DNA from: a virus
Lineage: Duplodnaviria > Caudoviricetes
Length of the DNA: 64,000 nucleotides
Reading direction: 5' to 3' (one strand)
IMG/VR virus record: IMGVR_UViG_3300047272_000250
Coordinates: 1-64,000 of that record
Both the position numbers and the translations under genes were made by a program. Below, one piece after another: positions 2,636-6,173 of this stretch (positions within the stretch are counted from its first letter, which is position 1; each line of letters starts with the position of its first letter). The notes under the pieces are model-generated. The model worked only from the letters and a program-made list of their open reading frames with translations. It was not told the origin of the DNA and made no database searches.

Positions 2636-2766
2636 AAAAGGGGGTCGTATATACCTGCGATTTCCATTAGCACATGACGTAGCTGAACTTCCATCTTCAT
2701 CCGAACTCATTACCGAGCTAGGGTGGTATTCGTAACTATAGCATCCTAAGAATGTATATACGACCC
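2636..2766 (-). ncRNA. Candidate structured ncRNA directly 3' of tRNA-Ile
   Basis: 13-bp perfect closing stem GGGTCGTATATAC/GTATATACGACCC enclosing about 100 non-coding nt, followed by TTTT. Confidence 0.55.
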
Positions 2767-3636: not shown

Positions 3637-3816
3637 TTATTCATCTTTATTTCGTATTGGGCTTGTGATTATCCATAGAGCGGTAGTTGCTACTATTCCA
3701 TATCCAACAATTGTCTTTGCACTTCCGTCCAAAACAACCCAAGCAATAAACATACCGAGAAGGGTCCATGCTTGGTCTACCATATCTTTTAGGATATTCT
3801 TTATTATTCTTACCAT
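3637..3816 (-). CDS. 59-aa membrane protein (2 TM), missing from the ORF track
   Basis: Hand translation MVRIIKNILKDMVDQAWTLLGMFIAWVVLDGSAKTIVGYGIVATTALWIITSPIRNKDE; start overlaps the end of the upstream gene. Confidence 0.75.
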   Translation of the reverse strand: MVRIIKNILKDMVDQAWTLLGMFIAWVVLDGSAKTIVGYGIVATTALWIITSPIRNKDE

Positions 3817-6173
3817 CTTCTTCCTCCTCTTGAACCTGGTGAATTGGCTCCTCCGCCTCCACCAGAACTTCCTCCGCCACCTGAGCCACCTCCAGTGGCA
3901 CCTCCTGCTGCTGCTCCTACTGCATTAATTGCAGCTCCTGCTGCTACAACTGTTGCAACAACCATATCTGTGGCTTCTTCTCTTTCTTCTTCAGTCATAT
4001 CTGCACCAATGCTTCCAAGCGCTGCTAATGCTGCTGCTGGATTTGTTAACGCTGTTTCAAGTAACGCTGCTGGATTTTGTACAAGTTCAACCTGTGCAGC
4101 AACTTCTGCAGTAATTACAAGAGCGTTTCCATTTTCATCTGTACGGACCTCAACTGGTGTTGATGGTGGTAGATCTGAATAAGAAACTCCAGCTGCTTTA
4201 ATATCTGCTGCTGAAACAGATTGTCCTGGGGCAAGATTCTCTATAAGCTTTTCTACTACAACTTCTTTCTGCTCTTCTGTTAGCTTTCCTTCTTCAGCTG
4301 CTTTCTTTAATGCCTCTTCTTCTGCTTTTGCTTTTTCAGCTTCTGCTTGCTTTGCTTCCGCTTCCTTCTTCAAAGCCTCTGCCTCCGCTGCTTTTGCTTC
4401 CGCCTCTGCTTTAGCATCCTCTTCTGCTTGTCTTGCTGCTTCAGCTTCTGCTTCTAGTTTTTCAGCCTCTGCTTTTGCTGCTGCTTCTTCAGCAGCTAAT
4501 CTTTCTGCTTCCTGCTTTGCAGCCTCTTCTGCTGCCTTTGCTGCGGCTTCTTCAGCTGCTATACGATCAGCCTCTGCCTTTGCGGCAGCTTCTTCTGCTG
4601 CAATTCTATCCGCTTCCGCTTTAGCTGCAGCTTCTTCAGCGGCCTTTTTTTCTGCTTCTGCTTTAGCGGCTGCTTCAGCCGCTGTTTTTGCTTCTGCTGC
4701 TGCACGAGCTGCAGCCGCTTCTGCGGCTCTAGCTTCTGCTGCTGCCTGGGCTGCTTGTTGTGCTGCTAATGCTGCAGCCGCTTCTGCGGCTAATCTTTGC
4801 TGCTCTGCATAATAATTTGTAGCAACCTGAGCAGCATTTGTCATTGCAGTAACAGCTTCATTTACTTTTGTTATTGCATTATTTGCTAATGAATCTGCTG
4901 CCTGAACAGCGACTGTTAGGTTTTCATTTGCAGTTGTTAGGTTTTGCTGCTCTGTTGTTAGGTTTTGGTTAGCTGTTGTTAGGTTTGCTTGAGCGTTTGT
5001 TAGGTTTGTCTCTGCTACCACCTTCTCTGCTGTAACAGTTGTTAATACTGCTGTATCTGTAGATAAGGTAGCCTGGGCTGACTGCAAGGCTGCTATCTGC
5101 TCTGGTGTTGCAGATGTTTGTGAAAATTGATTACCAGGAATAATTGTCCATGCTTGATTTTGCCGATCATACTTATAAAGCCAAACAGCTGCGCCGCCGC
5201 CATTTTCGTAGTACCAAAGTACAAAATCCTTTGCTACATTGGCTTCAGTTTGTATTGTGACTACAGATCCTCCACCGCCTTTATCGTACCAATCATTAAT
5301 CACTAATTGGTTATCCAGATAAAGCTTTACTCCATCGTCTGCTGGTGCATATATGTATGTGCTTTCAGTAATAGTTGGAGTCCATTGACCAGAATATTTA
5401 ACAATAACATCTTCAGCACGATTAGATCCAGCAACATATCCTCCTCCCCAGTTTTCATTAATACCATTTGTATCTGTTGAGGTGAATATAGGAGTGGCAT
5501 TTGCAGGTAGAGTAGGAGCATTGTTTTGTCCTTGAACGTCGTATACTTCTACCTTTAGCCCAGGAGTAGAATTAGCATCAACTGCTGCTTGAGCCTCTGA
5601 AACCAAGGTAGTGTCAGCTTGAACTACTGCTGTTTGTGAATCAACTGCTGCTGTTGCTGTAGCCACCGTTGTGGTTGCTGTGGCGACTGTTGCTGTGGCT
5701 GACTCAACTACTGTTACGGCTGTCGCTACTACTGCTGTTTGTGAATCAACATTAGCCTGTGCCGTTGTGGCAACGGCTACGGCTGTCTCTGCAGACTGAA
5801 TAGCAGTATTTGCTTCTGATACCTTTACTGTAGCCTGTGCTACCGCTGTAGCTATAGGCTCTTGTGTAGTAGCAATTGTATTTGCTGTTTGGGTATCTGT
5901 ATTTGGTACATTAGCTTGAATAGTAGTTATAATGGCATTACCCTGTGTTGTAGCAGCCTCCTGAAGTGTTGTTTGGGCTGTCTCAATTTTCTGCTCAACC
6001 GCTTGAACTGTGATCTGAACTGTCACTGTTGCGGTATCTGATGAGGGTGCTGGGGTAACCTGAGCGGTTACTTCGTCTGCAATTGCCTGATTTACGGGGG
6101 ATAAAGTTAGCCATAGAAATACAAATAGACCCATTAGGCCTGTTTTAATTAAAATTTTCTCTATTTTCCTCAT
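3810..6173 (-). CDS. Large exported membrane protein: signal/TM, helical stalk, PA14 domain, TolA-like Ala/Glu/Lys coiled coil, C-terminal hydrophobic and Gly-rich tail
   Basis: PA14 motifs ADDGVKLYLDNQLVINDW and YYENGGGA; AAEEAAAKAEADRI repeats. Confidence 0.8.
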   Translation of the reverse strand: MRKIEKILIKTGLMGLFVFLWLTLSPVNQAIADEVTAQVTPAPSSDTATVTVQITVQAVEQKIETAQTTLQEAATTQGNAIITTIQANVPNTDTQTANTIATTQEPIATAVAQATVKVSEANTAIQSAETAVAVATTAQANVDSQTAVVATAVTVVESATATVATATTTVATATAAVDSQTAVVQADTTLVSEAQAAVDANSTPGLKVEVYDVQGQNNAPTLPANATPIFTSTDTNGINENWGGGYVAGSNRAEDVIVKYSGQWTPTITESTYIYAPADDGVKLYLDNQLVINDWYDKGGGGSVVTIQTEANVAKDFVLWYYENGGGAAVWLYKYDRQNQAWTIIPGNQFSQTSATPEQIAALQSAQATLSTDTAVLTTVTAEKVVAETNLTNAQANLTTANQNLTTEQQNLTTANENLTVAVQAADSLANNAITKVNEAVTAMTNAAQVATNYYAEQQRLAAEAAAALAAQQAAQAAAEARAAEAAAARAAAEAKTAAEAAAKAEAEKKAAEEAAAKAEADRIAAEEAAAKAEADRIAAEEAAAKAAEEAAKQEAERLAAEEAAAKAEAEKLEAEAEAARQAEEDAKAEAEAKAAEAEALKKEAEAKQAEAEKAKAEEEALKKAAEEGKLTEEQKEVVVEKLIENLAPGQSVSAADIKAAGVSYSDLPPSTPVEVRTDENGNALVITAEVAAQVELVQNPAALLETALTNPAAALAALGSIGADMTEEEREEATDMVVATVVAAGAAINAVGAAAGGATGGGSGGGGSSGGGGGANSPGSRGGRRW

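Follow-up and report, generated by a model that had tools for sequence, protein, structure and literature searches.

A stem-enclosed RNA family of uncultured lake phages with antisense complementarity to the helix 69 region of 23S ribosomal RNA

The subject of this work is a structured element of approximately 125 nucleotides (nt) in a stretch of phage DNA (hereafter the window) that forms the initial 64 kb of the IMG/VR phage record IMGVR_UViG_3300047272_000250, a complete genome of 104,393 bp bounded by direct terminal repeats. All genes around the element run on the minus strand, and the coordinates of the RNA are given for that strand. The element is located directly downstream of a gene for tRNA-Ile (anticodon UAU; 2844-2769/2770; predicted by ARAGORN and matched by the Rfam tRNA model at 56.9 bits; CCA not encoded), which in turn follows an endonuclease VII-family gene (EndoVII; 3243-2830; Pfam PF02945, E 1.2e-16; PHROG endonuclease VII plus a WhiB-like N-terminus). 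It is delimited by an exact 13-nt inverted repeat, GGGTCGTATATAC (GGGUCGUAUAUAC as RNA; 2766-2754) and GTATATACGACCC (GUAUAUACGACCC as RNA; 2654-2642), the arms of which are 100% complementary and enclose 99 nt; we denote this terminal stem P1. An earlier note on this DNA had drawn attention to the perfect 13-bp stem and to its position just behind tRNA-Ile, and both observations hold, with a spacer of 2-3 nt between the tRNA and the element. The span given there, 2636-2766, does contain the element, but coordinate 2636 falls within the 3' tail CCUUUUC (2641-2635), a CC(Y) tail that continues into a short, weakly terminator-like U run, and not within the stem. The inverted-repeat pattern of P1 has no second occurrence in the window, and the entire 104,393-bp genome contains one copy of the element, so a repeat or mobile element with terminal inverted repeats was rejected as an explanation. 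On the 3' side of the element lies an extended -10-like box, TGGTAGAAT (2619-2611), recognized from its sequence only (TGGTACAAT or TGGTAGAAT in relatives), which is the predicted promoter of the next genes and would mark the element as the end of a transcription unit. Downstream of this box, on the same strand, a 79-aa gene precedes the gene for a 175-aa protein (2344-1817; N-terminal MPKGRYTIGGKG..., C-terminal DUF5872) that represents the commonest neighbor family of the element.

The interior of the element consists of two modules. Module A (CUUAGGAUGCUAUAGUUACG; 2750-2731) contains two near-invariant blocks, CUUAGGA (2750-2744) and UAGUUAC (2738-2732), and is a near-perfect antisense of 23S ribosomal RNA (rRNA) positions 1909-1929. 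The sequence CACCCUA (2725-2719) pairs with UAGGAUG (2748-2742) and as the 3' strand of a stem, P2, would close a hairpin with UAGUUAC in its loop. Then come the P3 hairpin, AGCUC-GGUAAU-GAGUU (2719-2704), which carries a conserved GAGU block, and the remainder of module B (2703-2655), with the blocks GAAGAUGG (2698-2691), ACGUCAUGUGC (2680-2670) and GGAAAUCGC (2665-2657). The internal pairings that had been suggested earlier fared unequally when compared with the relatives described below. The helix TAGGATG/CACCCTA, which is P2, fits the family, with an invariant 5' strand and a 3' strand that varies; AGCTC/GAGTT, which is P3, holds within the subgroup of the window (ACUC/GAGU, ACUCG/CGAGU, AACUC/GAGUU) but not beyond it; and the loop-loop pairing GTTAC/GTAAT is not conserved, the P3 loops of relatives being GGAA, GAAG, AAUA, GAAA and GGAU. 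The claim that no credible open reading frame (ORF) is present was borne out: a 46-aa ORF (2710-2570) lacks its ATG beyond the closest (~95% identical) relatives, a mini-ORF that starts at a conserved AUG shifts frame among relatives, and a coding gene was rejected given that neither is conserved.

Loci retrieved via the 175-aa neighbor protein all contain a stem-enclosed element after a tRNA(CAU) gene, with differing stem sequences and a common interior motif, CUUAGGAUG-N2-3-UAGUUAC. Pattern scans of viral, genome and metagenome contigs followed by stem detection yielded 129 unique candidates, among them ~118 that we consider credible distinct elements, from IMG/VR and metagenome contigs. A covariance model (R1) built from 24 promoter-type members detected, at 50-66 bits, additional members in loci that had been retrieved by neighbor protein homology only; these do not contain the exact motif and instead carry CUUGGGA or CUUAGUGA, which indicates that the family was not created by the pattern used for the scans. 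P1 shows double-sided changes in 12 of 14 pairs of the 24-member alignment and is 93.9% paired, a level that was not reached in any of 500 shuffles and that dropped to 38-67% in slid controls. Moreover, G.U pairs favor the tRNA strand (129 vs 52 A.C). The fold of the window element alone is not unusually stable (z = -1.6), so the case rests on the comparison with relatives and not on thermodynamics.

The genomic contexts of the family members are of two kinds. In the promoter-type context, 66 unique members start 6-7 nt behind a TATAAT-type -10 hexamer, and in the second context, 47 unique members start 0-2 nt behind a tRNA gene (Met/Ile-CAU, Ile-UAU, Leu, Gln or Thr), with the next tRNA located 2-10 nt further downstream and no U tract in 26 of these. 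Given these arrangements, the element appears either to fill a tRNA slot in tRNA arrays or to constitute an independent transcription unit of 80-100 nt, and the earlier proposal that a discrete small RNA is made together with the tRNA gains support from both contexts. A dedicated promoter that drives just this ~80-100-nt RNA in 66 members, the tRNAs on both sides of 26 members that lack a U tract, and an interior with 18-20 near-invariant nucleotides plus further conserved blocks across the family, none of which termination would need, are all difficult to reconcile with transcript punctuation, in which the element would merely end the tRNA unit as a terminator, insulator or processing signal and have no role as a free RNA. 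This explanation, which we consider improbable, draws on the succession of P1, CCUUUUC and the extended -10 box in the window and on the U-rich tails seen in several relatives; an intrinsic terminator would be a short, GC-rich hairpin with a U tract immediately behind it, and in the window P1 does precede CCUUUUC, but its "loop" is 99 nt long.

Searches of known RNA families and sequence collections retrieved nothing similar. Among the 4227 models of Rfam 15, the window gave only tRNA at the gathering threshold, the region 2540-2860 gave nothing for the element even at E<=10, and 12 relatives gave only tRNA and one transfer-messenger RNA (tmRNA) at the gathering threshold; this tmRNA (111 bits; L137:2646-2891, minus strand) is located on a related contig that also carries a promoter-type family member. 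The element was not called a tRNA in any ARAGORN or Rfam tRNA-model scan, and a BLASTN search of 50,697 records of cultured phages, with the region and with two family members as queries, produced no homolog. The family is known solely from metagenomes and from three contigs of metagenome-assembled genomes (MAGs). In the literature, we found no description of the motif or of a phage anti-rRNA RNA, although the IMG/VR catalog of 8,495 candidate RNAs (PMC10690425) may include it unnamed. We conclude that the element is real and belongs to a new, widespread family of structured RNAs in uncultured lake phages that is apparently undescribed.

Comparison of the members reveals a recurrent anatomy. 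Short members (70-98 nt) consist of P1, the P2 hairpin and one small 3' hairpin that ends ..GUGC..GRAU before P1, and long members (100-136 nt), including that of the window, add blocks in a fixed order: a C-rich P2 3' strand, RGAGU, GNGAGAYAG, YCAUUNGUGC and GGAAU(CG). The 5' strand of P2, UAGGAUG, is invariant, and the 3' strand is CUAUUUU, CCAUUUU, CAUCUA, AUAUCC or CACCCUA; in the comparative model, UAGUUAC occupies the apical P2 loop of ~9 nt. In the type-1 alignment, P2 hardly varies and is 89% paired, and direct covariation is scarce because one of the strands never changes; the CUUGGGA variant involves a double change in P2, from A-U to G-C. GAG is invariant in the long-type alignment. 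For the interior of the long type, RNAalifold on MAFFT alignments resolved P1 only, and a hand-built block alignment makes the conserved blocks visible with the fold not settled. A CC(Y) tail follows P1 in most, although not all, of the tRNA-linked members shown. In a further set of members, type C (the collinear topology: L073, L087, L091, L177, L311, L377, L396, L405 and L415), the same blocks are ordered B then A, P1 is formed by the outer ends, and a tRNA often follows directly behind. In both layouts the two modules form a ring that is closed once covalently and once by P1, and type C and the permuted type P together constitute a natural case of circular permutation within an RNA family.

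Helix 69 of 23S rRNA is a universally conserved hairpin that forms intersubunit bridge B2a. When its sequence is taken as GGCCG-UAACUAUAA-CGGUC (PMC4613259), and nt 1900-1935 of Escherichia coli 23S rRNA as AACGGCGGCCGUAACUAUAACGGUCCUAAGGUAGCG, both near-invariant blocks of module A are perfectly complementary to this region, UAGUUAC to G1910-A1916, i.e., the closing G and the 5' half of the helix 69 loop, and CUUAGGA to U1923-G1929. Each target heptamer is found once in E. coli 23S rRNA, GUAACUA at 1910 and UCCUAAG at 1923, and both are absent from 16S rRNA. A gap of 6 nt separates the two sites in the rRNA, and one of 4-5 nt separates the two blocks in the phage RNA, which follow each other in the corresponding antiparallel order; by chance, ~2e-4 collinear matches of two heptamers of this kind would be expected in ~4.6 kb of rRNA (4566 x 13 / 4^14). 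In the window, the 20-mer CUUAGGAUGCUAUAGUUACG aligns with 1909-1929 with one mismatch and one bulge, including 10 contiguous pairs over 1909-1918, such that module A covers the helix 69 loop, the 3' strand of helix 69 and the junction. The best RNAduplex site for window module A over 16S, 23S and 5S rRNA is 23S 1908/1909 (-22.5 kcal/mol), and the same site is the best one for 5 of 7 motif variants; for four motif variants, 0, 1, 2 and 8 out of 200 shuffles, respectively, were as stable. A motif variant with an A-to-G change still pairs with U1926, as G.U. Furthermore, the best-conserved nucleotides of the family coincide with the complement of the exposed helix 69 loop and its flank. Within the phage genome itself, no antisense target was found at <=3 mismatches. 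The antisense match of module A is thus clear in the window copy.

The loop of P2 also resembles another rRNA hairpin, the 790 loop of 16S helix 24, the sequence of which was taken for comparison from PMC4613259. In the short type, GG-AUUAGAUAC-CC agrees with GG-AUUAGUUAC-CC at 11 of 12 positions, and the two share the closing pairs and a loop of 9 nt, so that P2 could conceivably be a mimic that acts as a decoy for a loop-binding factor such as IF3 or KsgA. We assign only a very slight chance to this idea: 68 of 200 shuffles score as well, helix 24 contains nothing that corresponds to CUUAGGA, the loop of the window agrees at no more than 6 of 9 positions, and it is precisely the one fixed difference, A792 to U, that makes the loop perfectly complementary to helix 69. 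A likeness between the long type and 16S helix 23 and the alignment of the whole element to 16S rRNA were considered as well and rejected as not significant.

Since module B excludes the motif that was used for collecting the family, it provides a cleaner test of the relationship to 23S rRNA. Over the whole of E. coli 23S rRNA, the best antisense match of module B falls within 1925-2060 in 25 of 49 long elements, versus 4.6% expected. When nt 1930-2030 of 95 distinct bacterial 23S sequences were used as the target, with 60 shuffles each, module B beat all 60 shuffles in L104, L368, L180, L299, L276, L255, L109 and L341 (z 3.6-5.5), as well as in L325 (z 2.5), with lower scores in the sense than in the antisense orientation. 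For the type C members L087, L091, L377 and L415, none of 60 shuffles was as good as the actual sequence, without any permutation. For the permuted layout, the part of the interior that follows UAGUUAC was moved before the part that precedes it, and the result was reverse-complemented and aligned to 23S rRNA; thus rearranged, the interior aligns collinearly with 1909-2009 and beats all 100 shuffles for the window (38 vs a maximum of 35) and likewise for L165 (50 vs 36), L267, L259, L299, L276, L255, L109 and L341. The blocks that lie opposite 23S rRNA are GGAAU(UCGC) at 1933-1942, (CA)UUCGUGC at 1964-1972, GAGAYAG at ~1986-1992 and GAGUC at ~2004-2008. Helix 71 (1943-1963) is skipped in the alignments that span 1909 to ~2010, P1 emerges opposite 1930-1932 in the permuted layout, and the identity to ribosomal DNA (rDNA) is ~75%. 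In the window, GAAGAUGG, ACGUCAUGUGC and GGAAAUCGC are degenerate versions of the blocks that in relatives are antisense to ~1986-92, 1964-72 and 1933-42, and GGAAAUCGC, GUGC and GAGU remain recognizable. Controls, namely the other tRNA spacers of the same genome and the rnaC and rnaD RNAs of phage T4, were negative. The 23S sequences that match best differ among subfamilies, coming from Actinomycetota MAGs for L104, L368, L299, L267 and L341, from Rhodospirillales for L276, from Flavobacteriia for L109 and from Gammaproteobacteria for L165 and L255; such phylum-dependent best matches in a variable stretch of 23S rRNA are suggestive of host tracking. At the level of the family, the antisense complementarity to 23S helix 69 and beyond is non-random and statistically solid.

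A relationship to rDNA could in principle reside in the DNA rather than in the RNA. Intron and homing-endonuclease sites are classically concentrated in the 23S rDNA around 1917-1951, P1 emerges opposite ~1930-1932, the likeness to rDNA is valid on either strand, and an HNH cluster is present in 20 of 49 loci and EndoVII in 11 of 49; the element might accordingly be an rDNA-like target, decoy or recombination site for homing-type endonucleases such as EndoVII or HNH. The covariation of P1, the G.U bias toward the tRNA strand and the strand-matched promoters, however, are constraints at the level of RNA, nuclease adjacency is not conserved, and a nuclease specific for rDNA would not be expected to recognize a sequence with only ~75% identity, helix 71 deleted and the order of blocks permuted. 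We therefore regard a DNA-level role as highly improbable.

A more serious contender is a stable RNA that acts through its own fold, as a protein decoy or scaffold or as a ribozyme, with the likeness to 23S rRNA being a relic of an inverted, captured rDNA fragment that was later permuted and remodeled. The antisense of a structured RNA is itself structured, the occurrence of two circular permutations, type P and type C, is typical of RNAs selected for a three-dimensional fold, and the family has many conserved unpaired blocks; moreover, P1 and P2 are retained in the window and in the short types, in which module B has decayed. Yet relic blocks would have drifted across such divergent phages, and the nucleotides that are best conserved are exactly those that complement the exposed helix 69 loop and its flank. 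Furthermore, no conserved protein partner was found; the commonest neighbor is present in 32 of 49 loci, in varying positions. In Rfam, neither a ribozyme nor any other family matched the element, even at E<=10. On balance we consider a role based on the fold alone rather unlikely.

The interpretation that we prefer, to which we would assign a probability of about 0.5, is that the element is a stable phage RNA, co-processed with tRNA, that pairs with host 23S rRNA at helix 69. Under this interpretation, the ~125-nt RNA would be transcribed with tRNA-Ile and freed by the host tRNA-processing enzymes, or in other phages made from its own promoter. By analogy with established tRNA processing, release would involve the RNase P cut at the downstream tRNA and 3' trimming of the upstream tRNA, and the CC(Y) tail after P1 could aid an RNase P cut at the 5' end of P1 in the way the CCA end of a tRNA does. 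P1 would clamp the ends, and the predicted P2 hairpin would display UAGUUAC in its loop, through which the RNA, acting in trans as an antisense RNA, could engage the loop of helix 69 in 50S subunits that are free or still under assembly. This loop-loop contact would be lengthened by the flanking complementarity and, in fuller members, by the blocks antisense to 23S ~1930-2010. Large subunits or nascent 23S rRNA would be taken out of use as a result, via blocked subunit joining, blocked assembly or cleavage of the duplex. According to PMC12828698, citing Kulik et al. 2017, a peptide nucleic acid (PNA) complementary to helix 69 blocks translation and growth of E. coli, which shows that helix 69 can be reached by a complementary strand. 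The broader proposition, that uncultured phages encode natural anti-ribosome RNAs, expressed together with their tRNAs, that pair with helix 69 plus the core of domain IV and sequester 50S subunits, cause their mis-assembly or trigger their cleavage, we put forward tentatively, at somewhat less than an even chance.

Several observations weigh against pairing with helix 69. In the single-sequence partition-function fold of the window RNA, the anti-helix 69 loop is predicted to be mostly self-paired (the unpaired probability of CUAUAG is 0.1-0.2), with the RNA's own 3' region as the partner, a pairing that is not conserved in relatives; and CUUAGGA lies partly within the P2 stem and hence is not free to pair. 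The 23S segment 1920-2010 is mostly base-paired or buried in the mature 50S subunit, so full pairing would need nascent or unfolded rRNA, which by the same token is the target that the extended modules point to. An interior closed by P1 cannot wind many turns around a long target unless P1 opens. Module B of the window taken alone is not significant (z 0.9, with a higher score in the sense orientation), and the short members have module A only, module B of the short types being likewise not significant. The sequences of the family are phylogenetically related, and member counts are therefore not counts of independent events. Finally, the phage itself needs ribosomes, which makes the benefit of targeting them questionable.

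The closest analogs in context are the rnaC and rnaD RNAs of T4 (species 1 and 2), which, like the element, are non-tRNA RNAs of ~120-140 nt located 1-6 nt after a tRNA (tRNA-Arg in T4), in a tRNA cluster that also contains a homing endonuclease gene (segB in T4). This T4-type layout recurs in the family, inasmuch as the 47 tRNA-abutting members lie on the same strand as the tRNA and at a tRNA-like spacing. rnaC and rnaD are co-transcribed and processed with the tRNAs and have no known function; for the window RNA, the same processing is predicted from the context. The analogy is one of context only, with no similarity in sequence or motif: T4 lacks CUUAGGA..UAGUUAC, unlike the lake-phage family, neither rnaC nor rnaD has an antisense resemblance to E. 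coli rRNA, and rnaC ends in a tRNA-like T arm that the family does not have. With regard to the arrangement of genes, a nuclease gene followed by a tRNA gene occurs twice in the window (HNH, 476-126, with tRNA-Asp, 125-52; EndoVII, 3243-2830, with tRNA-Ile, 2844-2769), a layout that resembles T4 segB followed by tRNA-Arg. The EndoVII ORF overlaps tRNA-Ile by 15 nt (2830-2844), with the stop codon within the acceptor/D region of the tRNA.

The antisense RNAs of the CopA/CopT and RNAI/RNAII systems start pairing by a loop-loop "kiss". In the proposed mechanism, the phage RNA would resemble these in that a hairpin loop with a 7-9-nt seed faces a target hairpin loop, here helix 69, and that the flanks could extend the duplex. 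The targets in these systems are an mRNA or a replication primer, whereas the proposed target here is a functional center of rRNA, and unlike CopA and RNAI, the lake-phage RNA is clamped by a terminal stem, is found in tRNA arrays, and in its extended members is antisense to ~100 nt of rRNA in two permuted layouts. The anti-helix 69 PNA (Kulik et al. 2017, as cited in PMC12828698) is directed at the same hairpin but is man-made, short and uncharged, whereas the present case concerns a natural phage RNA for which binding is proposed from sequence.

The roles that had been considered for the RNA in the earlier note were less durable than its structural observations. Y RNAs (YrlA, bound by Ro/Rsr) do resemble the element in that their 5' and 3' ends pair into a terminal stem and in that they occur in phage tRNA regions; however, the element lacks a tRNA-like T or D arm, the Y_RNA and YrlA covariance models gave no match, and the TROVE/Ro domain (PF05731) is absent from the complete 104-kb genome under conditions in which control genomes were detected, so the comparison with Y RNAs was abandoned. 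A 6S-like RNA or a ribozyme found neither an Rfam match nor specific evidence. The suggested partnership with the EndoVII nuclease is not supported, the EndoVII gene being adjacent in only 11 of 49 loci, all of them close relatives. Ribosomal protein S21 of phage origin was also considered as a partner and rejected because it is absent. The earlier interpretation is thus supported in part, and the antisense match of the core to the helix 69 area had not been seen in it.

The phage of the window is probably an actinophage, to judge by its terminase, which is 64.7% identical to those of Streptomyces phages of Stanwilliamsviridae, by the N-terminus of the EndoVII protein, which matches WhiB-like PHROGs, and by start codons a few nucleotides behind promoters. 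In promoter-type relatives, the TATAAT box is only 6-9 nt before the ATG of the next gene, a distance that suggests leaderless mRNAs, and in the relatives L004-L016 extended -10 boxes occur about 100 nt after the tRNA. The 19.8-kb stretch around the terminase (64.5% identical) and adjacent tRNA genes of Streptomyces phage Gilson does not contain the motif; tRNA-Ile of this phage is followed by an unannotated gap of ~400 nt (L247:13384-13786) with several tRNA-like fragments (repeated GGGTCGGAT... starts and the T-arm-like GGTTCGAATCC), which lacks the motif as well. The hosts of the RNA family as a whole may be diverse, since other members are found on the three MAG contigs, which are labelled Bacteroidia, Methylococcus and Polynucleobacter.

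Among the neighbors of the element, the 175-aa protein family, when present, is encoded mostly downstream on the same strand. It is defined by the N-terminal motif MP(Y/K)xxGxKG(S/T)xGCxGYP(V/A)V and has variable C-termini (DUF5872 in the window, 370-460-aa forms elsewhere), with a weak PHROG match to a head maturation protease. Between the terminase and the tRNAs of the window lie genes for a 787-aa protein (3810-6173) with a PA14 domain and long Ala/Glu/Lys-rich and Ala/Thr-rich low-complexity stretches and for a 353-aa, Ala/Thr/Val-rich protein (560-1621) with a signal-like N-terminal segment. Outside the window, the genome encodes a second tRNA-Ile(UAU) (80130-80205) that is identical to the 2769-2844 copy at 45 of 76 positions and has no element behind it. 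At 98160-98528, non-coding spacers of 164 and 129 nt lie between the genes for tRNA-Gly, tRNA-Leu and tRNA-Trp, and one of them contains a 10-bp inverted repeat, CTGTTATACC/GGTATAACAG, around ~66 nt; these spacers are possibly further small RNAs, and they show no significant antisense likeness to E. coli rRNA.

To our knowledge, the small non-tRNA RNAs of phage tRNA clusters have remained unexplained since species 1 and 2 of T4 were sequenced. The family described here offers a testable idea, namely that RNAs from phage tRNA clusters can be aimed at the RNA of the host ribosome itself, and the invariance of helix 69 among bacteria makes a direct test of the RNA in E. coli possible. If the idea is correct, this would be the first natural trans-acting antisense RNA against a functional center of rRNA, and a function could be given to at least one of the small RNAs in phage tRNA arrays that have lacked an explanation. 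Helix 69 is essential for subunit joining, recycling and termination. It is also a validated antisense drug target, and from a natural RNA that evolution has directed to it one could learn how RNA invades this site. Such an RNA would further add a new layer to the takeover of translation or of ribosome turnover by phages, which may matter especially in nutrient-poor lakes, where rRNA is the largest store of nucleotides and phosphorus in the cell. Even if the pairing idea fails, what stands is a new, widespread and well-supported family of structured RNAs in uncultured lake phages with a natural circular permutation and a clear sequence relationship to rRNA.

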